Positions 2,956 through 61,726 of a stretch of 64,000 bases of DNA are shown here, piece by piece. The notes beneath the pieces were generated by a model. It was not told where the DNA came from and ran no database searches. It worked only from the letters and a program-made list of their open reading frames with translations. Origin of the DNA: a phage; sequence record PZ445429.1; one strand, given 5' to 3'. The position numbers and the translations under genes are program-made. Each line of letters begins with the position of its first letter. Within the stretch, counting starts at the first letter, position 1.

Positions 2956-3036
2956 CTGTAAAATTGTACTTGCTAAATGACTGAGAATAAAGTAAACTAT
3001 TTCCTAAATCCTGATAACTACAAAAAGGAAAGCCAA

Positions 3037-5367
3037 ATGAGCCATCGCATCGAAAAAGTAATTAAACGTGACGGTACTGTTCAGGACTTTGCTCCTGAAA
3101 AACTCAATGATTGGGCTGCATGGGCATGTAAAGATACTGACGTAAGTTGGTCTGCCGTAGTTATGGCTGCCCTGAAAAATCTACCCAAAGGTGTTGTAGA
3201 TTCCGATACACTCCAAGATGTGTTAATTAAAGCTGCTGAAGGTCTTATCAAAGACAATCCAGCATATGATACTGTAGCAAAGGAATTACGTCTTGCGCAG
3301 ATGCGTAAACGCCTCTATGATTCCTTCGAACCACCTTCTCTACGTTTCTTCCACGATCATATGGTTCGTGTCGGCGCTTGGGAAGACATGAGTGCATGGA
3401 TTAGCGATGATCAGTTTGACGCTCTGAACCAAGTTATTGATCATGATCGCGATCGTTTATTCACCAGTGGTGGACTGAAACAGTTCTTCGACAAGTATTC
3501 CCGTCGTAATATTGCAACTGGTGAAATTTATGAAACCCCGCAGTTTGCCTACATGGGTATGGCAATGGCGATGCTATCTCAACCTAACTGGACAATTCTC
3601 GATGCAATCGACCTCTACAACGCAATGTCACTCCATAAAATCAACGTGCCGACTCCACCTCTCGTGGGTCTTAGGAGCAGCGACCGCGGTTTTGCTTCTT
3701 GTTGTCTTGTTGATAGTACTGATACCCTCGATTCAATCGACACAGCCGAGCACATCGTCTTCAAAATGGTCGCAGCCAGAGCGGGAATCGGGTATCATCT
3801 TGAAAGCCGATCAATTGCTGATCCGGTGCGAAATGGGGCATTCCCGCATTCCGGAAAACTGCCATATTATCGACACATTGACCGATCAGTAAAAGCTAAC
3901 ACTCAGCAAACCCGTGGTGGTTCTGCTACTGTGTCTTACCCATACTTCGATCCTGAAATCATTCAGTTGATGCAGGTTAAGCAGCAACGTGCTACAGACG
4001 AGAATAAAATCGATAAGATGGATTACTCTCTGAGCTTTAACAACCTTCTGTTAAAACGTTACCTGAAAAATGAAGATATTACGCTAATGTCCTACTTCTA
4101 CGCACCAGAAGTTCATGAAGCGTTTTATGGCGAAGATGAGGCTAAGTTTGAAGAAATCTACGTGGCAGCGGAGAAACGTGTGGCATCTCTTACAAAGATC
4201 GACCACGAAGGAAAAACAATTCCAGCAGCTCCTAGAATCTCTGCAAAAGAAATCCTAGATACTTGGTTACGTATCCGTATGGAAACAGGGCGTATGTATG
4301 CTCATCACATTGGTGAATCTAACCGTCATGGTAACTTCCTTGACCCGATTCGTATGACCAACCTTTGTGTTGAAATTACTCAGCCAACCCGTCCATTCCA
4401 TCACATTACGGAGCTGTATAAGACCCAAGATCAGTTAGACGATATGCGTCCAGAAGATATTGGTGAAGTATCTCTGTGTAACTTAGGTGGTGTTGTACTA
4501 GGTCGTATGGAATCTCTGGCTGAATGGGAGAAAACTTGCTACATTCTTCTGAAATTCGTTGATACAATCATCGAGATTCAGGATTACCCATTCCCAACTA
4601 TGGAGTACACGGCTAAGAAACGTCGTAACGTTGGTATTGGTCTGATGAACGCAGCAGGTGCAATGGCAGCAGAAGGTTTGGCTTACGAAGGTGTTGAAGC
4701 CCGTAACTGGATTCACCGTGAAGCTGAAAAGCTGTCCTACTTCCTACATAAAGCCTCTGTACGTCTGGCTAAAGAACAAGGTGCATGTGACTGGTTTAAT
4801 CGTACTAAGCCTTCGCAAGGAACTCTGGTAATCGACACGTACAAGAAAACTGTTGATGAACTGGTAACTGTAGGTCTAGAAATGGATTGGGAATCTCTGC
4901 GTGCAGATATTCTGAAATATGGTATGCGCAACTCTGTTCTGACTGCTCAGATGCCAGGTGAAAGTTCCTCTGTACTGCTAGGTGTTACTAACTCTATCGA
5001 ACCGCCCCGTAAGATCGTATCTATCAAGGGTAGTGCAGTGAATAAAGTAATTGCAATTGCTCCAGGTGCAACTGATTGGGATACATTAATGAGCTATAAA
5101 CTGGCTTATGATGTAGATCGTATCGAGTGGATCAAATGGGTAGCAACCATGCAGAAATTCTTCAGCCAGTCTATCAGTACGAATATGTACTATGACTACA
5201 CCAAGTTCGAGAATGAAATCATTCCCGGCCCAGTAGTAGTTCGTGACTTTATGACTGCTGTTAAGTACGGTTGGAAAACTTGGTACTACGCTAACTTCAA
5301 CACTGAAAATGGTGGTGGAGCTGGTGAAGAAGCAGCAGGTTGTGCATCAGGTGGTTGTAACCTATAA
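3037..5367 (+). CDS. nrdA: ribonucleoside-diphosphate reductase alpha subunit (class Ia)
   Basis: ATP-cone VIKRDG at N-terminus, catalytic NLCVEI region, C-terminal Cys pair, 776 aa; start moved to ATG 3037 with RBS AAGGAAAG. Confidence 0.95.
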   Translation: MSHRIEKVIKRDGTVQDFAPEKLNDWAAWACKDTDVSWSAVVMAALKNLPKGVVDSDTLQDVLIKAAEGLIKDNPAYDTVAKELRLAQMRKRLYDSFEPPSLRFFHDHMVRVGAWEDMSAWISDDQFDALNQVIDHDRDRLFTSGGLKQFFDKYSRRNIATGEIYETPQFAYMGMAMAMLSQPNWTILDAIDLYNAMSLHKINVPTPPLVGLRSSDRGFASCCLVDSTDTLDSIDTAEHIVFKMVAARAGIGYHLESRSIADPVRNGAFPHSGKLPYYRHIDRSVKANTQQTRGGSATVSYPYFDPEIIQLMQVKQQRATDENKIDKMDYSLSFNNLLLKRYLKNEDITLMSYFYAPEVHEAFYGEDEAKFEEIYVAAEKRVASLTKIDHEGKTIPAAPRISAKEILDTWLRIRMETGRMYAHHIGESNRHGNFLDPIRMTNLCVEITQPTRPFHHITELYKTQDQLDDMRPEDIGEVSLCNLGGVVLGRMESLAEWEKTCYILLKFVDTIIEIQDYPFPTMEYTAKKRRNVGIGLMNAAGAMAAEGLAYEGVEARNWIHREAEKLSYFLHKASVRLAKEQGACDWFNRTKPSQGTLVIDTYKKTVDELVTVGLEMDWESLRADILKYGMRNSVLTAQMPGESSSVLLGVTNSIEPPRKIVSIKGSAVNKVIAIAPGATDWDTLMSYKLAYDVDRIEWIKWVATMQKFFSQSISTNMYYDYTKFENEIIPGPVVVRDFMTAVKYGWKTWYYANFNTENGGGAGEEAAGCASGGCNL

Positions 5368-5376
5368 TAAAAACAA

Positions 5377-5401
5377 GGAGATCTTCGGGTCTCCTTTTTT
5401 C
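5377..5401 (+). terminator. rho-independent terminator after nrdA
   Basis: GGAGATC-TTCG-GGTCTCC then TTTTTTCTTT. Confidence 0.65.
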
Positions 5402-5414
5402 TTTGAAATTTTAC

Positions 5415-5443
5415 TTGCTAATCGCTACCAGATTTGCTATAAT
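5415..5443 (+). promoter_or_regulatory. early promoter TTGCTA-N17-TATAAT (HNH/nrdB unit)
   Basis: exact -35/-10 hexamers with 17-bp spacer. Confidence 0.6.
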
Positions 5444-5467
5444 ATCTCTATATTAAGGAGATATACT

Positions 5468-5986
5468 GTGAAACCTCAACTAACAAAAGAATTTCTAGAG
5501 AAATATCTAGAACTCAGAGAAGATACTCTCTATTGGAAGCCAAGAGAGACTAATAAAGGTGGATTTAATACTAGATTTGCTGGAAAACCTGTAGGAGCCG
5601 TCAATGGAAATGGCTACCTATGCTTCCGACTTAACGTGGAAGGTTATAGATGGGAATTAAGAAATCATGTAGTAATCTTCTGTCTCTATTATGGATATTA
5701 CCCAACTAAGACAGTAGACCATAAAGATACAAATAAACTTAATAACCATCCTTTAAATCTACGAGAATCAACCGATGCTGGTAATGCCCAAAATAGGGGA
5801 GCCGGTAAAAACAATACCCATGGACATAAAAACCTAGAGCCTCTTAGTTCAGGAAACTGGAGGGTTAGGATAACACACAACGGTACTGTTTACAGATCTT
5901 CCGCAATGCCTCTAGAAAAAGCTCTAGAACATAGAGATATTAAACTTAAAGAATTTCATGGCGAATACGCTAATAATGGAGAATAA
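5468..5986 (+). CDS. HNH homing endonuclease (free-standing, between nrdA and nrdB)
   Basis: YYGYYPTKTVDHKDTNKLNNHPLNLRESTDAGNAQNRG HNH motif; own promoter TTGCTA-N17-TATAAT (5415-5443) and RBS AAGGAG before GTG 5468. Confidence 0.75.
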   Translation: MKPQLTKEFLEKYLELREDTLYWKPRETNKGGFNTRFAGKPVGAVNGNGYLCFRLNVEGYRWELRNHVVIFCLYYGYYPTKTVDHKDTNKLNNHPLNLRESTDAGNAQNRGAGKNNTHGHKNLEPLSSGNWRVRITHNGTVYRSSAMPLEKALEHRDIKLKEFHGEYANNGE

Positions 5987-5989
5987 TTA

Positions 5990-7135
5990 ATGACAACCTT
6001 ACTAAATCTGAACTGGAATCCTGATTCTGAAGAGCTATTTCTCGGAGATGCCCTGGGAGTAGCAGACTATGTTCGTGTTGCTCATCCAGAGCTAGAACGA
6101 CTCGCACTATTACAGAGGAGCCAGTTTTGGACTGAAACTGAAATCAGTCTAGAAAGTGACAAAAAGCAATGGCCTAATCTTCCAAGAGAAATACAAGAAA
6201 TCACTCTGCTGAACTTAGCTTGGCAGGTTCAAACAGATTCTTTCATTAGCCGTGCTCCTGAAGCAGCTATTATGCCGCTTGTAAGCCGTCCTGAATTGGA
6301 GGGTATGCTCAAGCAGTGGAGCTACTTCGAAGATCTGCACAGCCGTGCGTATAGTAATATTATTCGTAACGTTCTGACTGATCCAGCAGAATTTATTGAT
6401 TCTGTAACTAAAAACCAAGAAGCATTTGCACGTATCGCAGATTCTGTTGAACTGTTTGATGAATTGTATCTGTTAGGTCAGTATTTCCTTGCAGTACGTG
6501 ATCATCGTGGTGATAATACTTATCCAGAAACTGAGTTCCCTGAAGTTAAACGTGAAACTCAGGCTAAGCTGTTAGATGCTTACTTTGCAATCTACGGTCT
6601 GGAAGCAATGCAGTTCTACGCATCCTTTGCATGTACCTTTGCTCTAGCAGAGAACGATATTCTGCAAGGTATTGCTAAGAACCTGCAATTAATCGCTAAA
6701 GATGAAGCTCTACATACTCAAATGTCTAAAGCTATCATCCAGATTATGTTTCAGCAATTTGATAAAGATCTGGTAGATGAAGCATTAGCTAAAGCACCAA
6801 CACAACTCCTAAAAACTCTGAAAACTGAGATTGAATGGGGTCATTTTATCTTTAAAGGCCGTAGTCTGATTGGTTTGAACGCAGAACTGCTTGAAGAATA
6901 CCTTTACTTTGTAGGACGTAACGCATTTATGCACATTGGTGTAGAATGGCCAAGCCACTTACCTGTAATTACTAAGAACCCTATTCCGTGGATCATGAAC
7001 TGGTTGGATACTACATCTTTACAACCTGCTCCGCAAGAGATTCAGATTGGCGCAGCATATCGTGTAGGTCAAGTCACAGAAACATCTATGGATACTCTGA
7101 AAGATCTTGGCAACGAATTTGAGGGTATGTTCTAA
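5990..7135 (+). CDS. nrdB: ribonucleoside-diphosphate reductase beta subunit
   Basis: 381 aa, di-iron ligand pattern (ENDILQG...EALHTQ), conserved F/Y region. Confidence 0.9.
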   Translation: MTTLLNLNWNPDSEELFLGDALGVADYVRVAHPELERLALLQRSQFWTETEISLESDKKQWPNLPREIQEITLLNLAWQVQTDSFISRAPEAAIMPLVSRPELEGMLKQWSYFEDLHSRAYSNIIRNVLTDPAEFIDSVTKNQEAFARIADSVELFDELYLLGQYFLAVRDHRGDNTYPETEFPEVKRETQAKLLDAYFAIYGLEAMQFYASFACTFALAENDILQGIAKNLQLIAKDEALHTQMSKAIIQIMFQQFDKDLVDEALAKAPTQLLKTLKTEIEWGHFIFKGRSLIGLNAELLEEYLYFVGRNAFMHIGVEWPSHLPVITKNPIPWIMNWLDTTSLQPAPQEIQIGAAYRVGQVTETSMDTLKDLGNEFEGMF

Positions 7136-15367: not shown

Positions 15368-15396
15368 TTGCTAAACGCCTCAAAATTCTGTATAAT
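15368..15396 (+). promoter_or_regulatory. early promoter TTGCTA-N17-TATAAT
   Basis: family consensus. Confidence 0.6.
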
Positions 15397-15402
15397 AGAT
15401 TC

Positions 15403-15885
15403 ATGAAAAGGAAAGAATACCCTACTAAAGAAATACTTGAAAAATATTTTGTAGCTGATCCTGATAATGGGATACTATATAGGAAAACAAAGAAAGGTTT
15501 GAAAGAGTGTTGTGCCAATAATAAGAAATCACATCCAGATGTGGGATTTCAGGGCGACACCTATCAACTGCATGTCTTATTATTTATTATGTACTATGGA
15601 TATAGGCCTGAAGAAGTAGATCATAAGGATACTAATCCTAGAAATAATAGGAAAAATAATCTAAGGGACGCCTCTAGATCGCAAAATAATGCGAATAGAA
15701 ACCAACAATGCAATAATACTTCTGGGTACAAAGGAGTAAGTTGGGAAGGCTCTTCCTGGAGATACCAAGTAAGACATGAAGGAAAAAATTACAGTAAAAG
15801 AGGGTTTAAAACTGCGGAAGAGGCTTTCGAGGCCTCTAAGATATTAAGAGAATCCTTACATAAAGAATTTACTAACTTTGGTTAG
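15403..15885 (+). CDS. HNH homing endonuclease
   Basis: YYGYRPEEVDHKDTNPRNNRKNNLR...GYKGVSW (HNH plus AP2-like DNA-binding motif); promoter 15368-15396. Confidence 0.7.
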   Translation: MKRKEYPTKEILEKYFVADPDNGILYRKTKKGLKECCANNKKSHPDVGFQGDTYQLHVLLFIMYYGYRPEEVDHKDTNPRNNRKNNLRDASRSQNNANRNQQCNNTSGYKGVSWEGSSWRYQVRHEGKNYSKRGFKTAEEAFEASKILRESLHKEFTNFG

Positions 15886-16513
15886 TAATAGTGGGGTGCC
15901 GAAACCACTTATGTAACAACACTGCCGTCCTAGTATAATAGGTATTATTAGGGCTTCACCGCCTGAAGATGTGGGTTCGAGTCCCACGGTCGGAAAGAGT
16001 TGGATAACTGGTGCTTCTAATGGCGAAGCAATCGCAGGCAGTTGCGCACTGCCAAAACCACGCGGTAGTTGGTTCCAGGCTAACCAACCACTCTTGAAAA
16101 GTATATACTATGGTTTTGCTTGTTCAAGAAGCTTCGCATCGAAAATCGGAGGTGCGATTTTATCCGACCGCGTGGAGGACGTCTCTCCGTTAAGTGACGA
16201 AAAGTGGGACGATTCAGGTAGAGCTGGATATGGAACACCTATACATATGCGGAGTGCGCACAAAGCATATTGCGGTGGTACTAAACGAAATTAGGAGTCA
16301 TGACCTGCACAAGTTTAGTATGTCATAACCGATGTACATTCAGTACAAAAACCACTGAAGCTAAGATAGATAGTCACCTTGACTTAAACTGGAAGATATT
16401 GTCTGACGGAAGGGCTGCAGAGCTTAATCTGAGGGGGCTGACCCTACCTACCGTCGGGTATCTTTAAGAGCTTTTATAAGAGTTCTTAAAAATACCTAAC
16501 AAAAGGAATCAAT
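15886..16513 (+). ncRNA. ~630-nt ORF-poor GC-richer segment with tRNA-like T-arm and hairpins (candidate structured RNA)
   Basis: GUGGG-UUCGAGU-CCCAC T-arm at ~15971-15988, hairpin GGCAGUUGCGCACUGCC, long-range complementarity GGUCGG(15990)/CCGACC(16166); only a low-quality 107-aa ORF. Confidence 0.25.
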
Positions 16514-17139: not shown

Positions 17140-18084
17140 ATGTTTACTAAAAACACTAAAGAACTGACTTCTGAGCAAAAAGTAATTCGCACTATCAAAC
17201 GTTGGGGTGTTGGTGCTGTATTTGGTCTTGGCGCTATTATTCTGGCTCTCAATTCCTACACAGTTGTTCAGGATGGTACTGTTAAGACTCAAACCTTCCT
17301 GGGTAAAGTTAGCCCGAACCCTGTACTGCCCGGCTTCCATATTGTTAACCCATTTGCTTCTTTTGATACTTTTAGTACGAAAGATATTTCTATGAAACTG
17401 GATAAACTTCAGGTTCCTAGCCAGGATAAGTTTAAGTCTACTGTTGACATTACCGTTATGTTGCAGTTTGATGGTGCTAAAGCTCCTATGAACCGTGTTA
17501 ACGCAGGTACTCAGGATCAGGCTCTGAACAAGTACGTTGAAGAGAAGATGCTATCTACGATTCGTGAGTTTGGTAAGTCTGTACCAAAAGCACAAGATCT
17601 GTTCGACGCTAAGATTCAGGCTCAACTGCAAACTGCTATTCAGCAAGAAGTAGAAGAGTATGCGCGTCCTTATGGTTACACCGTTAAGCAAGTATTCCTT
17701 CAGGATATTACTCTGCCACCGGTAATCATGGAACAGGTACAGAACACCAAAGTTCGTGAAGAACAAGTTAACGCTGCAAAAGCTGAACTGGCTCGTGTTG
17801 AACAAGAAGCACAGCAGAAAGTTAAGCAAGCTGAGGCAGATCGTTCCGCTCGTGAAAACATGGCAGTAGCTAACGAACGTGACGCAGATGCTAAACTGTA
17901 CGCAGCTAAGAAAGAAGCTGAAGCTAACGCCGCTCTGCAACGTACCATTACTCCTGAAATGATTCGTTGGAAGCAGCTGGAAGTTGAAATGCTTCGTGCT
18001 GAAAAATACCAAGGTGGTGTACCGCAGACTGTTGTTGGTACTGGCTATGATGGTCAAATGATCATGGATATGCGTAACAAGTAA
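17140..18084 (+). CDS. SPFH/band-7 (prohibitin-like) membrane protein
   Basis: N-terminal TM helix then SPFH-like core and long Ala/Glu/Gln-rich coiled coil; start moved to ATG 17140 because track N-terminus overlaps a tRNA. Confidence 0.55.
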   Translation: MFTKNTKELTSEQKVIRTIKRWGVGAVFGLGAIILALNSYTVVQDGTVKTQTFLGKVSPNPVLPGFHIVNPFASFDTFSTKDISMKLDKLQVPSQDKFKSTVDITVMLQFDGAKAPMNRVNAGTQDQALNKYVEEKMLSTIREFGKSVPKAQDLFDAKIQAQLQTAIQQEVEEYARPYGYTVKQVFLQDITLPPVIMEQVQNTKVREEQVNAAKAELARVEQEAQQKVKQAEADRSARENMAVANERDADAKLYAAKKEAEANAALQRTITPEMIRWKQLEVEMLRAEKYQGGVPQTVVGTGYDGQMIMDMRNK

Positions 18085-18107
18085 TAGTTACACGTAATCT
18101 TCGAACC

Positions 18108-18195
18108 AAGCCCGCGTTTCCTCCGAGAGCGCGGGCTTTTCTGTATTTAAGACAAAAGAAAAGCCCCTTACCTTTCGGCAGGGGCTTTGTTTTTG
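18108..18195. terminator. pair of hairpin terminators between convergent SPFH (+) and Q/M-rich (-) genes
   Basis: AAGCCCGCG...CGCGGGCTTTT and AAAAGCCCCTTACCTTTCGGCAGGGGCTTTGTTTTT. Confidence 0.6.
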
Positions 18196-18401
18196 GTTTA
18201 GAACCATATACTCTTGTTACAGCAACCACCCATACGGGAGACCAATCTTGACTGAAAATCTACTCTAGGGGGCAGGATAAGAGTAGGCTTAAAGGCAAAC
18301 GGATTGAACACCGGTATTTGCGTAAACATTGCTGGAGAGCAACAACGTGCTACAGGCATTGGGCAGCATGACGTAGGTTTTCTACAACACATATAAACTC
18401 C

Positions 18402-18821
18402 TTAGGATTTCTCCCCATTTTGCGCTTTTGCAACTTGACTTTGACAGAAACTGTTAAACTTACCCATAAGTGATACAAGTTGCTTTCCATCCTCTGTTTT
18501 AGCGAAGTCTTCGAAAAGGGCTAGAACAGCCTGTCCTTCCGCAGATACCTGCGGTTGTTGGGTTTGTTGAGTCATCTGCTGCTGTGGTTGCATTTGCTGA
18601 GGCATCATCTGCTGAGGCATCATTTGTTGCATTTGCATTTGCGGCTGCATTTGCATCTGGTTGATGTTTCCCTGCGGGTTTTGCAGGGAATTTTGCATTT
18701 GCTGTGCTTCTGCCAATCTCTGTTGCAACTGTTGTAAGTAGGGGTTATCAAGCCCCGGAACGGGCTGCTGGGAGCCCATACTTTGATTAAATCCGTTGTT
18801 CACAAAACCATATTTACTCAT
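18402..18821 (-). CDS. Gln/Met-rich low-complexity protein (139 aa)
   Basis: minus-strand ORF with RBS GGAGGAG; QMQPQMQMQQMMPQQMMPQQ repeats. Confidence 0.5.
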   Translation of the reverse strand: MSKYGFVNNGFNQSMGSQQPVPGLDNPYLQQLQQRLAEAQQMQNSLQNPQGNINQMQMQPQMQMQQMMPQQMMPQQMQPQQQMTQQTQQPQVSAEGQAVLALFEDFAKTEDGKQLVSLMGKFNSFCQSQVAKAQNGEKS

Positions 18822-18843
18822 GATGGGCTCCTCCCCTTAATTA

Positions 18844-19839
18844 TTAAGCCGGCAGTTTAGCCTGCAGACCAGCCAGAGTCTGAGTGATAGCACCAAGACT
18901 TACAGCGATTTGGTTGATTACCTGACCGTTAGCACCACTACCCTGAGCGATAGCTTCACGCAGACGGCATTCGTTCAGTTCGTCCTGAATACGCGCAGTA
19001 GTTACACCAGCGATTGCAGACTGAAGTTCACAGCAGCATTCAGCGATCTGACGTTCCAGAGCGTTCTGGTTAGCACAAGCCTGAGCAGCTACAGCAGCGA
19101 ACTGGTTGTTAGTCTGGATAGACTGAGCAAACATGATCTGAGCGGTATCGAACTTGTCTTGAGCACGTGCGATCTGGTTAGCAGCGAAAGCTTGATCCAT
19201 CTGGCGAGAAAGATCGAACTGACCCTGAATAACGTTACGAGTTTCCTGACAGATCTGGTTGGACAGGTTAGCACCAGTACCGTAGATCGTAGTCAGAAGC
19301 TGTTGAGTACTAGCAGCTTGAGCAGCTCCTACACCATTTACTGCACTCAGAACAGCACCAGTACCCTGATTAGCTTCAGTACGAGTAGTGTTGATTGCAG
19401 CTAGAATACTTGCAGTATCCTGGTTAGAAAGGATCGCGTCCACAGCAGTTCCCTCAGCGGCAACACCAGCACCGCGGCCAAAACCACCGAAACCACCGAA
19501 TCCACCTGTTAATAGAGCACCGATTAAGATAGCTCCGAATAGACCCATACCTTCACCACCGAAAGCACCGTTAGCAACTGCTGGGTAACCACCCATTAGG
19601 CCAGGGAAGCCACTAGTGAATACGTTTACTGGTTCTTGCATTTTATGTTTTCCATGTTTATGACAATGTTCATCATCGTCATCTTCTTCATCATCTTCAT
19701 CGTGTTCACGATGTTCTTTTTCGTAGGCTTTGACCTTCTCCCACTTTTTCTTGTCTGATTCTTCGTGACGACGCAGTTCTGCTGCTACGCCAGCGACCGT
19801 ATCAGGACTCTTAGCTACTTCTTCTGTCATTTTTGACAC
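18844..19839 (-). CDS. His/acidic N-terminus plus glycine-zipper membrane segment protein (331 aa)
   Basis: minus-strand ORF with RBS GGAGGTG; HREHDEDDEEDDDDEHCHKHGKHK then GGFGGFGGFGRGAG then Ala/Gln-rich domain with CCC motif. Confidence 0.55.
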   Translation of the reverse strand: MSKMTEEVAKSPDTVAGVAAELRRHEESDKKKWEKVKAYEKEHREHDEDDEEDDDDEHCHKHGKHKMQEPVNVFTSGFPGLMGGYPAVANGAFGGEGMGLFGAILIGALLTGGFGGFGGFGRGAGVAAEGTAVDAILSNQDTASILAAINTTRTEANQGTGAVLSAVNGVGAAQAASTQQLLTTIYGTGANLSNQICQETRNVIQGQFDLSRQMDQAFAANQIARAQDKFDTAQIMFAQSIQTNNQFAAVAAQACANQNALERQIAECCCELQSAIAGVTTARIQDELNECRLREAIAQGSGANGQVINQIAVSLGAITQTLAGLQAKLPA

Positions 19840-20036
19840 CTCCTAGTATATAGAAAATGTGTGTCTCTTTGATCACTCATCCATAACATATACTTTACAC
19901 TACCCCAGCGAAAATGTCAAGGGGTCTTTAAAAATTGCCCCCGGATTTTTAGTGGGGTAACAATTTCTGGACCTCACCACTCACCTGCTACCCTTAAGTG
20001 CCCTGCGATTTTCCACTAAAAAGTTTAAAAATTCGA

Positions 20037-24257: not shown

Positions 24258-24332
24258 GCACCTTTAGCTGAGATGGATTAGCGCTTGCCTGAAGAGCTTG
24301 AGAGGTTGGATCGTTACCAACGGGGTGCACCA
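24258..24332 (+). tRNA. tRNA, anticodon unresolved (non-canonical T-loop AUCGUUA)
   Basis: acceptor GCACCUU/GGGGUGC plus CCA; anticodon arm could not be folded cleanly by hand. Confidence 0.35.
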
Positions 24333-25455: not shown

Positions 25456-26037
25456 ATGCACGGAATATCCTTACCCATTCCAGGGTTTGAGGAGTACTTA
25501 GTAAGTTTGGATGGGTTAGTATTTAGTATCAAATCAAACAAAATACTAACCCCAATAACCAGTAATTACGGATACTTATCTATACGTCTCCATAAAAATG
25601 GTCAACAGAGAAATACCGGTGTACATAGGATTTTAGCATGTGCATTTAAGAAATTACCAAGTCTAGACTCTGAACTAGAAGTTGACCATATTAACACAGA
25701 CATTACTTATTGGGGTCTTAATAACTTACAAGTGCTCACAAAAGAGCAGCATCTAGAAAAGACTTTAAAAGACAAAGGATTTAGTAAACTAAACCATGAT
25801 AATTGTTGTAAGGATTGTGGTAAAGCTATTTCTTTAAAAGCTGAAAAATGTCAGGAGTGCTCTTCACATAAACCAAAAGATATCTCTATAACTAAAGAAA
25901 TAATCGAGGTTACAGTAAGAGAGCTAGGCTGGTCAGGTGCAGGGAGAAAGTTAAGTTATTCAGATAATGGGTTGCGTAAAAGATACACTTCTTTAGGAGG
26001 CAATCCTAAAGAACTTAAAAAGTTAAAGGTACTATAG
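25456..26037 (+). CDS. HNH homing endonuclease with C-terminal zinc ribbon
   Basis: HRILACAF...EVDHINTD...NNLQVLTKEQH HNH core; CKDCGK...CQEC. Confidence 0.65.
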   Translation: MHGISLPIPGFEEYLVSLDGLVFSIKSNKILTPITSNYGYLSIRLHKNGQQRNTGVHRILACAFKKLPSLDSELEVDHINTDITYWGLNNLQVLTKEQHLEKTLKDKGFSKLNHDNCCKDCGKAISLKAEKCQECSSHKPKDISITKEIIEVTVRELGWSGAGRKLSYSDNGLRKRYTSLGGNPKELKKLKVL

Positions 26038-26102
26038 TCTAACGGTTAGGATACTCCCCTGTCACGGGAGAGGTAGGGTTTCGATTACCCTTAGTACCGC
26101 CA
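26028..26102 (+). tRNA. tRNA-Asp (anticodon GUC)
   Basis: acceptor GGUACUA/UAGUACC, anticodon stem CUCCC/GGGAG loop CUGUCAC, T-loop UUCGAUU, CCA. Confidence 0.7.
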
Positions 26103-27177: not shown

Positions 27178-27342
27178 ATGAAATTATTTCGTTTAAAAGT
27201 AAGTGATCTACGTTCTAGCAAAGATCGTAAGAAGTATCCACTAGCCCATTACGGTAAAGATGAAAACGAAGTGATGGCGGAATTTGGTATTAATCATCCT
27301 TACTTAAAAGTCTACTCTATTAAAGAAGTCTATGCTAATTAA
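27178..27342 (+). CDS. small ORF (54 aa), not in track
   Basis: RBS AAGGA before ATG 27178. Confidence 0.35.
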   Translation: MKLFRLKVSDLRSSKDRKKYPLAHYGKDENEVMAEFGINHPYLKVYSIKEVYAN

Positions 27343-27805
27343 TAAAGTTTTAGCTGCCTTAAACCTTCCTGATAACTTCATTATAGATGATAAGCTCATA
27401 AGAGCTTATATGAGCAAATATAACGAAATTTCGGGTAAAGAAGGTAAGTTAAAAACTTCAGAGTTTAGATTCTGTTATCGAATGGCAGCCTTAAATCTCT
27501 TAAAGTATAAAAGGGAGCATAAAATACCTATAACGGAAGGTTTTGTATATGTAATTGGTAATCCAGCATGGCCAGGCATGTATAAAATAGGTATGACTAT
27601 AGATGTGAATGAGAGGTTAGCAAGTTATCAAACTTATTCACCTAATAGAGACTACAAGCTATACCATTTCAGATTTTCGTCGGATAAAAGACGTACAGAG
27701 AAAGAATTACATAATCTTCTTAAAGATTATAGAGTATCTGGAGAATGGTTTGAAGTACCTGTACTAGATGCTTTTAAATTATTAGTAGAAAAATTGGATT
27801 GCTAG
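27332..27805 (+). CDS. T5orf172-type (GIY-YIG-like) domain protein, putative homing endonuclease
   Basis: GFVYVIGNPAWPGMYKIGMT ... EWFEV pattern of GIY-YIG-like/T5orf172 family; 3' end overlaps tRNA start. Confidence 0.55.
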   Translation: MLINKVLAALNLPDNFIIDDKLIRAYMSKYNEISGKEGKLKTSEFRFCYRMAALNLLKYKREHKIPITEGFVYVIGNPAWPGMYKIGMTIDVNERLASYQTYSPNRDYKLYHFRFSSDKRRTEKELHNLLKDYRVSGEWFEVPVLDAFKLLVEKLDC

Positions 27806-56974: not shown

Positions 56975-58639
56975 ATGAATATTTCCGCAGAAAAACAAGC
57001 TCAAATTCTGAAAATGGCCGCAGATTTTAACTTCTACGGTAAGCGTTTACGCGCTACTAAATTGGAAGTTTGCGACGATATTTCAAAAGCTGTTTATGAT
57101 ACGCCGAAACATTCAACCGCAATTTGTGACTGGCTGGAAGCAAATAAGCCAGCGAAACCGAAAGCGGCAAAAGCTGAAAAGGCGATTAAAAATGATGATC
57201 GCCCCGAAGCGGCGGGAATTGTTTCTAGTACCGTTGAACAATGGGAAGTTAAATCCGGTCGCCGTTTTATTCTAACGTCGATTCAAAATAATACTTTCCC
57301 GCATAAAAACTTTTTAGCAAGTCTGGAAAAATTCGCTGAATATTGCGGCGCTGAATTGCTGATTAGTAAATTCATTTATAATAAAAATGGATTCCAGAAC
57401 GGGGAAGGGGCAAACGGTATTAAATACGATCCCGCATTTGATAAATATGTTTGTGATAAAAACGTATTTTTAAATAACCGCCGCTTTGCTTTCATGGCTG
57501 AAATTAACGTTTTACCAACGGCAGATTATCCGCTTTCAGGATTCGCAGAAACCGCCACGGCTTTAAATATCGAAGGTCTGGCAATTGGTCACGCAAAAAT
57601 TACCGCTGAAAGTGTTCCCGCGCTTAAAGGTGAAGTAGTGCGCCGTATGTATTCAACCGGAACGGCTACGCTTAAAAACTACATTCAGCAGAAAGCAGGT
57701 CAAAAAGCTGAGGCTTTACATAATTACGGCGCTTTGCTGGTGGAGTTCGACGACGACGGAGAATTTTATTGCCGCCAGCTTGAAACAATGGATGAAAGCG
57801 GAATGTTCTATGATTTGAATGTTTGCGCTATGCCTACCGGATGTTTTGAAACGTCCGATCATGTTCTAGGCTTGCAATATGGCGATATTCACGCCGAAAA
57901 ACTAGATGATGATTGCGCCGTCGCTTCATGGGCTAGTGAAAACAGCTTGCTTGATATTCTTAAACCGAAATATCAATTTATTCATGATGTGCATGATTTT
58001 ACATCCCGCAATCACCATAACCGCGCAAGTGGTGTATTCCTTGCTAAACAATACGCCGCCGGACGTGATAAAGTTATTGATGATCTTATCGATACGGGTC
58101 GCGTATTAGAGTCTATGGAGCGTGATTTCTCTCAAACAATCATTGTGGAATCTAACCATGATTTAGCTCTTTCACGCTGGCTTGATGATCGTAACGCTAA
58201 CATTAAAGATGATCCCGCAAACGCGGAATTGTATCACCGTCTAAACGCTGCGATTTACGCCGCTATTGCTGAAAAGGATGATACCTTTAACGTGCTAGAT
58301 TACGCCTTGCGGAACGTCGCAGGTTGTGAATTTAACGCTATTTTCCTGACTACTGACCAATCATTTAAAATCGCTGGCATTGAATGCGGCGTACATGGTC
58401 ACAATGGCATTAACGGCAGTCGGGGCAATCCTAAGCAGTTTAAAAAGTTGGGACGCCTTAACACTGGTCACACTCACACGGCTAGCATTTACGGCGGCGT
58501 TTATACCGCTGGCGTTGCTGGTAGTCTCGATATGGGTTACAACGTTGGCGCGTCAAGCTGGACGCAAACGCATTTAATTACATATGCAAACGGTCAACGT
58601 ACCTTGATTGATTTCAAAAATGGCAAATTCTTTGCCTAA
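56975..58639 (+). CDS. A1: A1-like pre-early protein with calcineurin-type metallophosphoesterase/nuclease motifs
   Basis: 554 aa (T5 A1 is ~556 aa); GDIHAEKLD, ESNHDL, GHNG, GHTHTA motifs; followed by A2-like and dmp-like genes. Confidence 0.55.
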   Translation: MNISAEKQAQILKMAADFNFYGKRLRATKLEVCDDISKAVYDTPKHSTAICDWLEANKPAKPKAAKAEKAIKNDDRPEAAGIVSSTVEQWEVKSGRRFILTSIQNNTFPHKNFLASLEKFAEYCGAELLISKFIYNKNGFQNGEGANGIKYDPAFDKYVCDKNVFLNNRRFAFMAEINVLPTADYPLSGFAETATALNIEGLAIGHAKITAESVPALKGEVVRRMYSTGTATLKNYIQQKAGQKAEALHNYGALLVEFDDDGEFYCRQLETMDESGMFYDLNVCAMPTGCFETSDHVLGLQYGDIHAEKLDDDCAVASWASENSLLDILKPKYQFIHDVHDFTSRNHHNRASGVFLAKQYAAGRDKVIDDLIDTGRVLESMERDFSQTIIVESNHDLALSRWLDDRNANIKDDPANAELYHRLNAAIYAAIAEKDDTFNVLDYALRNVAGCEFNAIFLTTDQSFKIAGIECGVHGHNGINGSRGNPKQFKKLGRLNTGHTHTASIYGGVYTAGVAGSLDMGYNVGASSWTQTHLITYANGQRTLIDFKNGKFFA

Positions 58640-58651
58640 TTAAATTTAATC

Positions 58652-58671
58652 AGCGGGGAATATTCCCCGCT
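58652..58671. terminator. palindrome AGCGGGGAATATTCCCCGCT
   Basis: 13 bp after stop of A1-like gene. Confidence 0.5.
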
Positions 58672-58714
58672 TATATTCCCGAAAAAGTTAATTAAATAAT
58701 CTGGAGTTTTAAAC

Positions 58715-59107
58715 ATGAAAAACCAAAACATTCCTTTTGATCGCGCTACTTCTTCCATCGTTCTAGTTTATTCTAATGGCGAGCGTTATCACGTTGAATC
58801 GGGTCATATTATTGATGAACTGCTAGACTTTAACGAGGCGCTACAGGTAACAACATTTGCATATATTACCGGTAAAGCGTCAAGCCATACAAAAGCAAAA
58901 GGCGTTTATATTGATACCGTAAAAGAGCAAACTGTTATTATTGACGCTGTAAAATCAGGTCTAGCGTTTGCAGTTGTCGCGCCATGCCCCGCTTGCCTTG
59001 ATAATGCTCTTATGTCTGCAAAGGTCTACACTTGCGCGGGGATTCGTTCCAGCGTATCAGGTGAGGATATTAGTTTTATCGCTGATGCTCTTGCTTTTGG
59101 TCTTTAA
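58715..59107 (+). CDS. A2-like pre-early protein (130 aa)
   Basis: size and position downstream of A1-like gene; hairpin terminator 59121-59147. Confidence 0.3.
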   Translation: MKNQNIPFDRATSSIVLVYSNGERYHVESGHIIDELLDFNEALQVTTFAYITGKASSHTKAKGVYIDTVKEQTVIIDAVKSGLAFAVVAPCPACLDNALMSAKVYTCAGIRSSVSGEDISFIADALAFGL

Positions 59108-59120
59108 TAGCTAACTTATT

Positions 59121-59147
59121 ATTGCCCGCTTATAAATAGCGGGCAAT
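59121..59147 (+). terminator. hairpin terminator after A2-like gene
   Basis: ATTGCCCGCT-TATAAAT-AGCGGGCAAT. Confidence 0.55.
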
Positions 59148-59186
59148 GCTGAATTAACTATACCCTTAAATGGAGAACGTAACAAA

Positions 59187-59921
59187 ATGAATCAAGTTAA
59201 AATGAATATTACCCATAATTTCCCGCATATTTCCCGCGTCATGATTTGGGATCTGGACGGCACAATCATTAATTCTTTCCATCGTGTAGCGCCTTGCTTT
59301 GATGATAACGGGAATTTAAATTTAAATAAGTATTCCCGCGAAGCCTGTAAACATGAATTAATTATGCAGGATTCTTTATTGCCGTTGGTTGAATATATGC
59401 GCCAATGTATGAGTGACGCAAATACATTAAACATTATTTGTACCGCTCGCCTTATGTCTAAAAGCGATTATTTTTATTTACGCAAACAAGGCCTGCGAGG
59501 GCGCGGAAATAGTAATATCCGCGTATTTTCCCGCGATACACTGCATAAATACTTTGAAGCTGATAAGGTTAGCGAAATATACCACAGCAAAGACGCTGTA
59601 TACAAAAGCTATTACTTTGAACTATTTAAACAGCTATATCCGAACGCTGATTTTACGATGATTGATGATCATAAAGGCGTATTATCGGCGGCGGCAAGTG
59701 CTGGGTTCAAAACACTGGACGCCCAAGCCGTTAACGATATCCTATCAATCGGCGTAGCATTGATCGGTGAAACCTTTATTGATGAATCGTTAGATGATGA
59801 TAATGATTATCAATTCCTAGCCGAACGTTTAAAAATGTGTTGGGAAGGTATGACCGAGGAAGAACGCGCGGAATATAGTACCACACCGCAACAATTCATT
59901 GATAAATTAAAAGTTGCATAA
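59187..59921 (+). CDS. dmp: HAD-family 5'-deoxyribonucleotidase (dmp-like)
   Basis: 244 aa; HAD motif I MIWDLDGTIINS; later DD motif. Confidence 0.55.
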   Translation: MNQVKMNITHNFPHISRVMIWDLDGTIINSFHRVAPCFDDNGNLNLNKYSREACKHELIMQDSLLPLVEYMRQCMSDANTLNIICTARLMSKSDYFYLRKQGLRGRGNSNIRVFSRDTLHKYFEADKVSEIYHSKDAVYKSYYFELFKQLYPNADFTMIDDHKGVLSAAASAGFKTLDAQAVNDILSIGVALIGETFIDESLDDDNDYQFLAERLKMCWEGMTEEERAEYSTTPQQFIDKLKVA

Positions 59922-59938
59922 CAATTAAAAATAAAATA

Positions 59939-59976
59939 GTTTCATCCTGTAATTAAAAAATGGTTACAGGATGAAA
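59939..59976. terminator. bidirectional hairpin between dmp-like (+) and HNH (-)
   Basis: TTTCATCCTGTAA-TTAAAAAATGG-TTACAGGATGAAA. Confidence 0.6.
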
Positions 59977-60094
59977 CAGTTAGCATGGTAATAGTAACAC
60001 AGGGGGATTATTAGACTACTAACTATCCCCAGTCCCACTGAGCACATCTGCATGTGTAATCTTATGAAATTTCAAGATTTTCAAATTAGCGCTA

Positions 60095-60568
60095 TTAACC
60101 GTGGTTTGTGAACTCACCACATACTTTCTCACGTGCTTCCCTTATCGCACTTTCAGCTTCCTCAAGACTCTCGAAATAGGCCGAGATAAAATATTTGCCT
60201 TGGTGTCTACCGCGTGCTCTCCACTTCTTACGAGTGTTATCCCAGTATACTCCCTTAACTCCCGAGATATTGTTCTTAGATAGACGCTGATTCGCTAAGT
60301 TCTGCTCATGTGATGCTTTACGAAGATTATTCTTTCTATTATCTAGTCCCTCACAGTTTTTATGGTCTATGAGAGATTCTCCGGGATCTTCTCCGTAGAT
60401 GCACCACCAAGCTAGGCGATGCACTCTAAACTCTCCGAACTGTGGGTGACGATATATGAGATAACCTTCACTTTCCTTAGTATATCCTATAATAGGCAGG
60501 AATCGCCCCGTATCTGGATCGTATGAAAAACTACCAGCTATTTCATCAGGGATTTTCTTAAATATCAT
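60095..60568 (-). CDS. HNH homing endonuclease
   Basis: HRLAWWCIYGEDPGESLIDHKNCEGLDNRKNNLR ... GVKGVYW, paralogous to the 15403 HNH. Confidence 0.7.
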   Translation of the reverse strand: MIFKKIPDEIAGSFSYDPDTGRFLPIIGYTKESEGYLIYRHPQFGEFRVHRLAWWCIYGEDPGESLIDHKNCEGLDNRKNNLRKASHEQNLANQRLSKNNISGVKGVYWDNTRKKWRARGRHQGKYFISAYFESLEEAESAIREAREKVCGEFTNHG

Positions 60569-60810
60569 GAACTTCTCCTATCTACTGGCTTATCTCCCGA
60601 TTCTGACATACGAAACCTCCTCCGCGACGCCCGAGATCCATCAGACCATTCTCGCTCAAACTCCGCACGTTTCTCCGCAAACTTCCGCTCTCTTTCCGAA
60701 AGCTCTCGCGATACTCCCGCAATATATTCACGATGCTTATTAATCGCCCCGAGTGTTCCGAAGATTCCCGCAAGTACCCCGATAATGAAGATAGCTACAA
60801 AACTAAACAT
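60565..60810 (-). CDS. small membrane protein (81 aa)
   Basis: N-terminal TM helix, basic tail. Confidence 0.4.
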   Translation of the reverse strand: MFSFVAIFIIGVLAGIFGTLGAINKHREYIAGVSRELSERERKFAEKRAEFEREWSDGSRASRRRFRMSESGDKPVDRRSS

Positions 60811-60913
60811 TACTTGTCTCCACGCAGCTTACGTTCGATACGAGCTAAGTGGTTATCTAAGATGCACTGCCCTATAATTACCACAACTAGTAAAGCAATA
60901 ATTACTACTTCCA

Positions 60914-61099
60914 TTATAACCACCCCGCCATAGCTGCTAACCAAAAGAGTACAAAGATAAAGAATAACACAGTCCCGAATCCGAAACTATTTATCCAACT
61001 TTCGTACACTTCCCCGCGTCTGTTCTTTCTTCTGTTGTCGTCTGACATCTCTTTGCTTCTCCTGTAGTCTTGGTATTTGGAATACCATAGCAATTGCAT
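60914..61099 (-). CDS. small membrane protein (61 aa)
   Basis: C-terminal TM helix. Confidence 0.35.
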   Translation of the reverse strand: MQLLWYSKYQDYRRSKEMSDDNRRKNRRGEVYESWINSFGFGTVLFFIFVLFWLAAMAGWL

Positions 61100-61376
61100 G
61101 AACCATTATGACTGTCCCGATAAGATCCATTACTTCGTCGAAGCCGGATTCTTCTAGTAAGAAGGATGTTCCATCACGTCTTCTACTGTATCTTCTATGA
61201 CATCTTGAATGATTTCATCAATTGCATCATGTATTGCTTTTTATTCCTGGGATTTATTTCAAAGTTAACAGGTTCCTGAAAGGACTTTTCTTCATCTTGC
61301 ATTGTGTTTGCTACCTGTACCTCATCCCAGAAATAAAAATTTTTGTTTACTTCGAGATCTTTTTACTTTATACTAA

Positions 61377-61643
61377 TTACAAGTGACCAGATTGTTCTAG
61401 TTTAAATTTGCAATCACCATATTTGAGATCAAACTGTGACAAATCCCACCACCCAAACTTAGTGCGTAACTGAGTTTTAGGGAATCGGTAGCCCACAGTA
61501 CGTGCTTCTCTAATATCTAAAGCGTAGTGTTCTTCACCAACATGTCCATAAGACTTCACGTATGCCTTACAGAATGGCTCGGGAGCTGGTACACAACCAG
61601 TCAACACTACTGCTGCAACTACGATAGCTAGTAACTTTTTCAT
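61377..61643 (-). CDS. llp: Llp-like lipoprotein (receptor-blocking lytic-conversion lipoprotein, putative)
   Basis: 88 aa, signal peptide with lipobox LTGC; divergent from adjacent receptor-binding protein gene as for T5 llp/oad. Confidence 0.5.
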   Translation of the reverse strand: MKKLLAIVVAAVVLTGCVPAPEPFCKAYVKSYGHVGEEHYALDIREARTVGYRFPKTQLRTKFGWWDLSQFDLKYGDCKFKLEQSGHL

Positions 61644-61726
61644 AATCGTTCCTCTGTTTAATTTATAAATATATTATAGCAAAATAGAGGGATTTAAGCA
61701 AATACATTTTTAAAGAAGGAGATTGT

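Follow-up and report, generated by a model that had tools for sequence, protein, structure and literature searches.

A probable HNH homing endonuclease gene between nrdA and nrdB of a T5-like Salmonella phage, linked to a recoded nrdB 5′ end

Introduction

Where T5-like genomes differ locally, homing endonuclease genes are recognised as the chief cause (PMC10644984), and the interval between nrdA and nrdB is a described hotspot for them in both T5-like and T4-like phages (PMC3326045, PMC2790892). In T4 this intergenic site holds mobE, a promoterless gene whose product nicks at nt 122–126 of T2 nrdB and whose flanks are co-converted (Wilson and Edgell, 2009, PMC2790892). HNH genes between nrdA and nrdB of T5 and AKFV33, and the insertion hotspot that they occupy, have also been described (Niu et al., 2012, PMC3326045). 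[quoted passage not shown] T5orf172 genes, which are enriched in T5-like phages, are treated as homing endonuclease genes (Barth et al., 2023).

Here we analyse 64 000 nt of DNA (record PZ445429.1; hereafter the window) from an Epseptimavirus (T5-like) Salmonella phage. The window carries five mobile nuclease genes, four of HNH type and one of T5orf172/GIY-YIG type, which we name by their lower coordinate. The one between nrdA and nrdB, 5468, is already known in kind from P-TflVIII of T5, ORF96 of AKFV33 and mobE of T4. From the sequence patterns described below we consider it likely that 5468 encodes a free-standing homing endonuclease of the HNH type and spreads by homing, with co-conversion of the adjoining part of nrdB.

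Results

Nuclease genes of the window

All five endonuclease ORFs named in a preliminary description of this DNA were found (Table 1). Three of them exceed the Pfam HNH_3 gathering score of 24.8 bits, namely 5468 (41.4 bits, E = 1.1e-10), 15403 (44.5 bits) and 60095 (32.2 bits). The 25456 product passes with NUMOD4 (24.2 bits, threshold 23.4), its HNH_3 score being only 18.5 bits and under threshold, and 27332 matches both T5orf172 (PF10544, 55.9 bits, threshold 20) and MUG113 (PF13455, 67.8 bits, threshold 22.3). The PHROGs 'HNH endonuclease' families take in all four HNH proteins, 5468 (E = 2e-40), 15403 and 60095 falling into phrog_99 and 25456 into phrog_59/959. No further paralogues were detected by phmmer among the window ORFs of at least 50 aa. 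The reading of these ORFs as free-standing homing-endonuclease-type genes, proposed in the preliminary description, is supported by the family assignments and by the polymorphism among relatives reported below. The four genes other than 5468 are independent elements that live in the same way, and three of them lie within the tRNA cluster; 27332 is a putative homing endonuclease gene by its domain and its polymorphic site occupancy.

Table 1. Features of the nrdA–nrdB locus and the remaining nuclease genes of the window
Feature	Coordinates	Strand	Basis or remarks
nrdA, ribonucleotide reductase large subunit, left flank	2977–5367	+	ORF; annotated nrdA in relatives
Intrinsic terminator after nrdA	5375–5404	+	Hairpin 5375–5396, 9-bp stem, 4-nt loop, T-run
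Resident nrdB early promoter	5415–5443	+	TTGCTA-17-TATAAT, extended −10 TG; T5P28 equivalent
Small hairpin	5442–5464	+	AUAUCUCU / GGAGAUAU; spans HNH Shine-Dalgarno
Heterologous HNH cassette, 544 nt	5446–5989	+	Window/beppo pairwise alignment
HNH ORF	5468–5986	+	Between nrdA and nrdB; GTG start 5468, AAGGAG 5455–5460, stop 5984–5986
nrdB Shine-Dalgarno GGAG	5978–5981	+	Inside final HNH codons (…NNGE-stop)
nrdB, ribonucleotide reductase small subunit, right flank	5990–7135	+	ORF; annotated nrdB in relatives
Allele-linked recoded nrdB 5′ end	5990–6229	+	~240 nt; allele-specific part ~nt 1–135 = 5990–6124
nrdB codons 40–44 (L L Q R S)	6107–6121	+	9 nt changes, 0 aa changes vs HNH-less allele
Second HNH, phrog_99, 160 aa	15403–15885	+	Pfam and PHROGs matches
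NUMOD4-HNH endonuclease, 193 aa	25456–26037	+	tRNA-Asn/tRNA-Asp interval; Pfam and PHROGs
T5orf172/MUG113 (GIY-YIG-clan) putative endonuclease, 157 aa	27332–27805	+	tRNA-Met/tRNA-Lys interval; Pfam
Third phrog_99 HNH, 157 aa	60095–60568	−	Between dmp and llp/pb5 region; Pfam and PHROGs

The nrdA–nrdB locus

Both nrdA and nrdB are intact, and the HNH gene occupies the interval between the nrdA stop and the nrdB start as an intergenic ORF of its own, outside any intron or intein. Sequence identity between the window and phage beppo, which lacks the HNH gene, stops after TATAATAT and picks up again at the nrdB ATG. The cassette delimited by this alignment stands in place of the 29-nt native nrdB 5′ UTR of empty-site phages.

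The preliminary description had credited the HNH gene with a promoter of its own and had placed the insertion in a conserved operon; neither claim survives comparison with beppo. The terminator behind nrdA is resident and lies outside the cassette, since the same element is found at the empty site of beppo; the T5 annotation also has a terminator here. The promoter, whose T5 equivalent is annotated as 'putative early promoter T5P28', is that of nrdB: together with the upstream terminator it is base-for-base the same in beppo, where it stands directly ahead of nrdB. The two elements part nrdA from nrdB even in empty-site phages, and annotators should be warned that the promoter ahead of the HNH gene belongs to nrdB. 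The cassette starts 2–3 nt past the −10 box of this promoter and is therefore transcribed from it. At the other end, the HNH stop codon lies 3 nt ahead of the nrdB ATG and a new nrdB ribosome-binding site is contained within the last HNH codons, so that nrdB expression is preserved. Alleles C and C2 are arranged likewise (…ANNGEAK-stop and …ANNGED-stop), the HNH end abutting or overlapping the nrdB start.

The small hairpin at the left edge of the cassette has weak statistics (−7.5 kcal/mol, z −1.95, 8 of 200 shuffles folding as well) and is lost when folding begins at 5450. Counterpart hairpins occur in T5, phiLLS and EH7. The structure may sequester the HNH Shine-Dalgarno and so have a regulatory role; transcripts initiated at the expected start would lack its 5′ arm, so that the hairpin would be confined to read-through RNA from nrdA. 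It could instead stem from shared ancestry of the cassette leader.

The 5468 protein

The 5468 product (allele A, 172 aa) has an HNH_3 core of the I-HmuI type (VDHKD...NN...NLR...N), and its allele is already labelled homing endonuclease in several GenBank records. Among solved structures, a sequence match was obtained only to I-HmuI (1U3E), a weak one (E = 0.0099) that covers the catalytic motif. This motif is intact, VDHKDTNKLNNHPLNLRESTDAGNAQN aligning with VDHKDGNKDNNLSTNLRWVTQKINVEN of I-HmuI, and D84, H85, N93, N97 and N106 are invariant across the three window paralogues. Relative to EH7 the HNH gene shows 63 synonymous and 10 nonsynonymous differences (dN/dS ∼ 0.02), relative to TrudiGerster 22 and 1. 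The gene is under strong purifying selection.

The C-terminus gives no Pfam AP2 match for 5468 at E ≤ 0.01, and the AP2 match of 60095 (29.8 bits) is under the threshold of 33.3; the paralogues can be aligned with one another at their C-termini. An AlphaFold2 model of 5468, built from an alignment of three sequences, has a low overall pLDDT of 65, and only its C-terminal domain is usable, its PDB matches being weak. Residues 121–165 of the model (pLDDT 75–88) match the TEM1 AP2 domain in Foldseek (probability 1.0, E = 0.09, rmsd 2.6 Å over 55 columns). On the basis of this model the C-terminus looks like an AP2/Int-arm-like DNA-binding fold.

Occupancy of the site among relatives

We surveyed the site in related phage records sampled at even spacing, 58 of which were informative. 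The site was empty in 30/58, held other HNH alleles in 23/58 and the 5468 allele in 5/58; the empty site spans 1285 nt, compared with 1801 nt. The 5468 allele is present in 32/443 related records; rokbiter and SE19 are carriers. The other alleles share 28–44% amino acid identity with 5468 and use two insertion sub-sites. At least four allelic HNH lineages occupy the nrdA–nrdB interval of T5-like phages, spread over both Tequintavirus and Epseptimavirus, and one copy, the HNH gene of bastian with a frameshifted C-terminus, is decaying. This intergenic comparison, which had been suggested with the first reading of the sequence, shows that the site is polymorphic among relatives rather than filled by an HNH gene at the identical position in all of them. 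The abundant polymorphism in presence and in allele bears out the description of the gene as a mobile insertion. The HNH gene is missing from about half of the relatives and is therefore dispensable for growth.

The recoded nrdB 5′ end

The two flanks of the cassette differ sharply. The final 1.1 kb of nrdA is 100% identical to beppo, and the nrdA flank shows no co-variation with the HNH allele. Over nrdB nt 1–240, identity with beppo drops to 73% (39 codon changes are synonymous, 11 nonsynonymous), compared with 98–100% in the remainder. In clustering, nrdB nt 1–240 follow the HNH allele, whereas nt 300–1000 follow the genome background. pS is 0.57–0.81 in the 5′ segment vs 0.07–0.38 in the rest of the gene; synonymous sites are saturated between allele classes in this segment only, where haplotype divergence exceeds the genus-level divergence of the remaining gene. 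None of the records with HNH-A (0/32) combines it with a non-A nrdB 5′ end, all 32 aligning as a single piece. The linkage of HNH allele and nrdB 5′ end is a population-level pattern, as distinct from the outcome of a cross. One practical consequence is that nrdB nt 1–240 serve poorly as a phylogenetic marker for the T5-like family.

The nrdB 5′ tract is probably a co-conversion or immunity tract with the endonuclease target inside it, and, as far as sequence patterns can tell, its allele-linked recoding bears the mark of homing accompanied by co-conversion and by immunity of the target site. The diverged segment could also simply have arrived with the HNH gene from a distant donor lineage. 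One rival explanation is that 5468 is a passive accessory gene which moves, together with the nrdB segment, only by ordinary homologous recombination between co-infecting T5-like phages, the nuclease having a different task, for instance to nick phage DNA or break down host DNA, and not driving its own inheritance. T5-like genomes are indeed mosaic, the best-matching phage differing for each stretch of the window, and strong purifying selection suits any useful function. However, with about half of the relatives lacking the HNH gene, phage growth does not need it, and recombination alone accounts neither for saturation limited to the adjacent 240 nt in every allele class, nor for a silent switch between codon families (see below), nor for the fact that HNH-A never stands beside a non-A nrdB 5′ end. 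We consider the passive-gene explanation improbable.

Codons 40–44 of nrdB, where silent recoding is densest, align with the MobE-dependent nick positions at nt 122–126 of T2 nrdB and lie directly 5′ of the conserved FWTETE block. Their changes include an Arg-Ser codon-family switch from CGT TCT to AGG AGC. On sequence grounds, these codons are the best candidate for the core that is recognised or cut. Equally dense is a second cluster at nrdB nt 28–42, which includes amino acid changes, and recoding runs through the whole 240 nt; the target is therefore not pinned to codons 40–44.

Two phages, 1-23 and mar003J3, have an A-type nrdB segment without HNH-A. The homing cycle predicts such a state, in which the site is resistant and the endonuclease gene absent. 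D-type HNH genes occur together with 0-type nrdB 5′ ends as well as A-type ones, and are therefore not tied to one haplotype. This last observation bears on another explanation, which overlaps with homing: the HNH alleles may be weapons of competition or marker exclusion, each cutting the nrdB of rival alleles as well as empty sites, favouring the flanking phage genes and keeping old, mutually immune nrdB haplotypes. It would suit the presence of at least four HNH lineages across Tequintavirus and Epseptimavirus, every one of which has a particular nrdB 5′ haplotype, and the excess of inter-haplotype over genus-level divergence. Also in its favour, related intron endonucleases of the Bacillus phages SPO1 and SP82 reportedly compete with one another (Goodrich-Blair and Shub, 1996). 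Yet the empty site is the commonest state, so that plain homing into empty sites suffices, and the D-type alleles do not behave as haplotype-bound. Competition as the driving role thus seems rather unlikely to us, and we retain homing with co-conversion as the preferred reading.

Sites of the other four genes

The preliminary description placed several endonuclease genes beside tRNAs, and 15403, 25456 and 27332 do adjoin tRNA genes. The first ends 37 nt ahead of tRNA(UCA) at 15923, its insertion lying 6 nt past a resident TTGCTA-17-TATAAT promoter (15368–15396); 25456 overlaps tRNA-Asp, and 27332 tRNA-Lys, by 10 nt each. An Rfam scan for structured RNAs near the endonuclease genes returned only tRNAs at threshold. 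The homologous tRNA region of T5 carries annotated stable RNAs of unknown function.

All four genes are precise indels compared with some relatives. Positions 15408–15888 are missing from S133, where the downstream tRNA-like stretch is 76% identical; 25460–26043 are missing from JLBYU43; 27334–27795 are missing from T5 and phage 1-29; and 60095–60580 are replaced by 18 nt in phagemcphageface. The tRNA-Lys gene downstream of 27332 is 76% identical in 1-29, compared with 97–99% in the flanks. 15403 was found in 49/441 related records (query coverage ≥ 80%), 25456 in 54/374, 27332 in 85/382 and 60095 in 13/404.

15403 and 60095 had been taken for close paralogues and for a possible substrate of inversion or recombination. 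Both belong to phrog_99 and lie on opposite strands, an arrangement in which they might act as inverted repeats that flip the intervening 45 kb. The two genes share only 39% amino acid and 51% nucleotide identity, and in their DNA the longest exact match is 9 nt and the best local match 19 nt at 89%. They are not close paralogues, and this is far too little identity for homologous recombination, which is ruled out at the sequence level. Gene order is, moreover, collinear with relatives around both sites, and we regard such an inversion as next to inconceivable.

Discussion

The data are consistent with the following homing cycle. In a mixed infection, the enzyme would nick or cut the nrdB 5′ end (∼ nt 1–135) of the phage that lacks the HNH gene, codons 40–44, which lie shortly before the conserved FWTETE tryptophan block, being the best candidate for the cut site. 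Recombinational repair off the HNH-bearing genome would then carry over the HNH gene and, with it, ∼ 240 nt of nrdB. The nrdB of the carrier, densely recoded at silent sites, would be protected from self-cleavage. For the 5468 allele, we infer cleavage, the cleavage site and super-Mendelian inheritance from the sequence pattern.

That an HNH gene sits between nrdA and nrdB matters little as a finding by itself. What the analysis adds is a natural donor and recipient pair, the window phage and beppo, whose sequences agree fully over > 1 kb upstream and are 98–100% identical past nrdB nt 240. Defined cassette boundaries and a short candidate target should ease a homing assay and nick mapping. 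A more far-reaching proposal, which we put forward tentatively and hold to be possible but doubtful, is twofold: that MobE and the T5-like nrdA–nrdB HNH enzymes converged on the same stretch of nrdB, the codons 5′ of the radical-transfer tryptophan block, and that at least four competing alleles keep old, saturated immunity haplotypes which appear to predate the split of Tequintavirus and Epseptimavirus. If true, this would amount to a long-lived balanced polymorphism in the essential gene nrdB, driven by endonuclease competition.

By analogy, the 5468 gene may work like mobE. Both lie between nrdA and nrdB, lack a promoter of their own and rely on resident transcription, in a layout that keeps nrdB expressed. 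The MobE target is in the nrdB 5′ end of phages without mobE, a short way ahead of the conserved Trp block, and the silent-recoding hotspot linked to 5468 is at the aligned codons 40–44. Flanking nrdB is co-converted in the T4 system, and the population pattern suggests the same for 5468. The host phages belong to different families, however, and the control elements are arranged differently: in T4 the nrdB promoter is inside mobE and the terminator is specific to mobE carriers, whereas at 5468 both are resident and upstream of the cassette. MobE has a classical HH...N...H motif, unlike the HNH_3/I-HmuI type of 5468 with its AP2-like C-terminus. Homology between the two proteins was considered and rejected (BLASTP E = 0.04, no meaningful alignment).

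The T5 protein AAX12027 (P-TflVIII, 'putative endonuclease') and ORF96 of AKFV33 share with 5468 the phage family, the insertion behind T5P28, the protein family and the size. The T5 protein is only 30% identical to 5468 in amino acid sequence, and 5468 therefore represents a different allele lineage; each lineage goes with a distinct haplotype at the nrdB 5′ end. I-HmuI, the HNH nicking endonuclease of Bacillus phage SPO1, likewise combines a catalytic with a DNA-binding module. It is intron-encoded, whereas 5468 is free-standing, and its C-terminal module is a helix-turn-helix, while that of 5468 looks AP2/Int-arm-like in the model.

[quoted passage not shown] SegB differs in being a GIY-YIG enzyme from a different phage family. 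The 25456 product is ∼ 43% identical (tblastn) to an HNH protein of the T5 tRNA cluster, which one record calls F-TflII, a name taken from the GenBank annotation alone.

Endonuclease genes of the window

All five endonuclease genes of the preliminary description are present where it placed them, and three lie between or beside tRNA genes. In Pfam searches, 5468, 15403 and 60095 (genes are named by start coordinate) exceeded the HNH_3 threshold, 25456 exceeded that of NUMOD4 and had a sub-threshold HNH_3 match, and 27332 matched T5orf172/MUG113. The four HNH proteins all fall into 'HNH endonuclease' families of PHROGs, and no additional paralogue was found among the window ORFs. The HNH identity of the 5468 protein (HNH-A, the product of allele A) is established and its catalytic motif is intact; the only solved structure matched by its sequence is I-HmuI, and the match spans this motif. 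An AlphaFold2 model built from three window paralogues was mediocre (pLDDT 65); its better modelled C-terminal domain (residues 121–165) matches AP2 and lambda-Int arm-binding folds, in agreement with a sub-threshold Pfam AP2 match of the 60095 paralogue.

The window also encodes PhoH, nrdA, nrdB, dihydrofolate reductase, thymidylate synthase, RNase H, pre-early A1/A2/dmp, llp/pb5 and a cluster of 28 tRNA genes. Its megablast matches are Demerecviridae, the majority Salmonella Epseptimavirus phages, with rokbiter 99.5% identical in the nrd region. The nearest phage differs between endonuclease-bearing stretches (rokbiter, KKP_3831, PMBT22, YZU-L1, 1Sgal2PP) and no record matches best everywhere; the genome is a mosaic. 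A1, A2 and dmp (56975–59921) run straight into the llp/receptor-binding-protein region (61377–63508). Since these lie at opposite genome ends in T5, the source record was apparently assembled in permuted form or with its terminal repeat collapsed. HNH 60095 sits within this junction region (56975–63508), where some relatives have an annotated terminal repeat. A local G+C peak (0.47 versus ~0.40) at 18000–20000, where GC and AT skew are also reversed, coincides with two minus-strand ORFs, 18844–19839 (331 aa, Gly/Ala/Gln-rich) and 18402–18821 (139 aa, Gln/Met-rich).

Features of the nrdA–nrdB site and indels at the other endonuclease genes (window coordinates)
Feature	Position	Strand	Remark
nrdA stop	5367	+	left flank of insertion
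Intrinsic terminator	5375–5396	+	3' of nrdA stop
Near-consensus promoter	5415–5443	+	upstream of HNH ORF
HNH cassette	5446–5989	+	544 nt: new leader, 172-codon HNH ORF, GGAG for nrdB
GGAG for nrdB	5978–5981	+	encoded by final HNH codons
15403, absent stretch	15408–15888		absent in S133; allele in 49/441 records
25456, absent stretch	25460–26043		absent in JLBYU43; allele in 54/374 records
27332, absent stretch	27334–27795		absent in T5 and 1-29; allele in 85/382 records
60095, absent stretch	60095–60580	−	18 nt in its place in phagemcphageface; allele in 13/404 records

A mobile cassette between nrdA and nrdB

The HNH-A ORF starts at a GTG (5468) preceded by AAGGAG, a start also annotated in TrudiGerster, and ends with a stop codon 3 nt short of the nrdB ATG. 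In the phage beppo, which has no gene between nrdA and nrdB, the nrdA 3' end, terminator and promoter are identical to the window base for base, and the alignment holds until 2–3 nt past the −10 hexamer. From there, beppo continues with a 29-nt leader, which carries a ribosome-binding site of its own and leads directly to nrdB; in the window the cassette replaces this leader. The promoter had been described as the endonuclease gene's own. However, because it is identical in beppo and the equivalent T5 promoter is annotated as early promoter T5P28, it belongs to nrdB and the cassette borrows it. Nor does the term 'conserved operon' hold, since terminator and promoter part nrdA from nrdB in insertion-free phages too. 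A hairpin (5442–5464; weak statistics) could mask the ribosome-binding site of the HNH gene. Transcripts initiated at the promoter are expected to start downstream of its 5' arm, and the hairpin would thus affect only those reading through from nrdA.

Comparison among relatives bears out a mobile insertion, and clearly not all of them carry this gene. Allele A occurs in 32 of the 443 phage records matching the flanks. An evenly spaced sample of the ranked records gave 58 informative rows, comprising 30 empty sites, 23 other HNH genes and 5 copies of allele A, counts that RefSeq/GenBank duplicates inflate equally. The site spans 1285 nt when empty, 1801 nt with allele A and 1754–1807 nt with other HNH genes. 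At least four protein lineages (mutual identity 28–44%) occupy it: A (window, TrudiGerster, EH7), B (T5, P-TflVIII; bastian), C (fuchur, SmurfNell; phiLLS at 67% identity) and D (S124, chee130, 1-23, mar003J3). Lineage D occupies a separate sub-site, 5' of the promoter, has its own terminator and leaves the native nrdB leader untouched. Allele A gave tblastn matches of two kinds, ≥ 95% identical in 32 records, each at this site, and < 60% identical, with nothing between. Between HNH-A and EH7, dN/dS is ~0.02; such strong purifying selection points to an active rather than a decaying gene. The bastian HNH (1170–1670 of comparison sequence L003) shares 83% identity with the T5 protein; its C-terminus, however, is frameshifted and unrelated, and the copy is probably decaying. 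In mar003J3 an additional HNH annotated P-TflX separates nrdB from the dihydrofolate reductase gene (L018 2646–3158); the window has no insertion there, its nrdB stop and dfr start overlapping at 7135. Endonucleases occupy several sites in the nrd-frd-td block, which is a hotspot for them.

The recoded 5' segment of nrdB

Window and beppo are 100% identical over the 1.1 kb upstream and 98–100% identical in nrdB beyond nt 240, but only 73% (64 mismatches) over nrdB nt 1–240. Among eleven phages, nt 1–240 group by HNH allele (window–TrudiGerster 96%, T5–bastian 93%, fuchur–SmurfNell 99%, beppo–chee130 99%) and nt 300–1000 by genome background. The proportion of synonymous differences between allele classes is 0.57–0.81 over nt 4–240, at or near saturation, versus 0.07–0.38 in the remaining nrdB, genera included. 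As the variants at nt 161–240 are common to allele A, bastian and S124, the allele-specific recoding covers only ~nt 1–135. The bastian 5' end is itself a hybrid, B-like over nt 1–135 and A-like over nt 161–240.

Mismatches are densest at nt 28–42, amino-acid changes included, and at nt 120–132. The latter cluster (codons 40–44, L-L-Q-R-S, window 6107–6121) has nine nucleotide changes, including an Arg-Ser codon-family switch (CGT TCT to AGG AGC), with the amino acids unchanged. HNH-A was never found beside a non-A nrdB 5' end in the 32 allele-A records. Phages 1-23 and mar003J3 lack HNH-A but have, behind the native leader, an A-type segment (95–97% identity); they would represent the resistant site lacking the endonuclease gene that a homing cycle predicts.

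The other endonuclease genes and their tRNA neighbours

Each of the other four genes is missing, as a precise indel, from at least one relative. The tRNA gene directly downstream of 15403 and of 27332 is ~76% identical to that of the relative, in surroundings of 97–99%, the same pattern as at nrdB. The 15403 and 60095 genes had been proposed as a substrate for recombination or inversion; this is ruled out by their low identity (protein 39%, DNA 51%; longest exact match 9 nt). The 25456 protein is ~43% identical to the T5 tRNA-cluster HNH, which bears the label F-TflII in one record.

The ATG of 15403 is 6 nt past a TTGCTA-17-TATAAT promoter (15368–15396) that is kept in HNH-less S133, and translation may be from a leaderless mRNA. 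This is a second HNH cassette directly behind a resident −10 box, a geometry also seen at the nrd site in allele C of fuchur. A 74-nt tRNA-like gene (15923–15996; anticodon UCA, which would read UGA) follows 37 nt downstream of 15403. It is too short for the selenocysteine tRNA called by ARAGORN, scores only 33 bits with Rfam tRNA and is annotated tRNA-Sec or tRNA-OTHER in relatives; its S133 homologue (76% identical) gave no tRNA call. Possible identities are an opal suppressor and a Trp-like tRNA; the cluster gave no tRNA-Trp call. The 25456 ORF overlaps the 5' end of tRNA-Asp (26028–26102) by 10 nt, and JLBYU43 (L013 848–922) lacks both the HNH gene and a callable tRNA-Asp, the 5' half of the tRNA being different; gain or loss thus seems to involve both at once. 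An extra tRNA at 24258–24329 (Rfam, 33.4 bits) is absent from the ARAGORN calls. In the window, tRNA was the only Rfam family to reach threshold. In T5, 'stable RNAs with unknown functions', RNAIV and RNA2H, lie between tRNA genes (L014 1–57 and 916–1087) and are the probable counterparts of the structured RNA segments noted earlier.

Comparison with known systems

Endonuclease genes at this site were described in 2012 for T5 (P-TflVIII) and AKFV33 (ORF96, 42% identical), with the remark that, as in T-even phages, nrdA–nrdB is a hotspot for endonucleases (PMC3326045). Homing endonucleases are recognized as the chief source of local variation between T5-like genomes (PMC10644984), T5orf172 genes are reported to be enriched in these phages (PMC10448857), and several GenBank records already label allele A 'homing endonuclease'. 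The finding is thus real but already known, and two interpretive details of the preliminary description were wrong. A modest addition is an nrdB 5' segment that is linked to the HNH allele, saturated at synonymous sites and coincident with the region targeted by MobE; its main value is that a homing experiment becomes easy to design.

The domain, catalytic motif, cassette layout, polymorphism and allele-linked recoded flank are the observed part of the homing reading. By analogy with the experimentally studied T4 mobE, the enzyme would nick or cut nrdB at its 5' end in phages without the gene, repair would copy the gene with ~240 nt of nrdB into the recipient, and the recoded segment would shield carriers from self-cleavage. 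T4 mobE is promoterless and lies between nrdA and nrdB; MobE-dependent nicks occur at nt 122–126 of T2 nrdB, within a polymorphic stretch (nt 114–131) adjoining the conserved FFWRPEE block, and the flanks are co-converted (PMC2790892). In an alignment of T4 and T5-like NrdB, codons 40–44, just 5' of FWTETE, are equivalent to the T2 nick site. However, MobE and the 5468 protein have no significant sequence similarity, so a common target, if the target is the same, is convergence.
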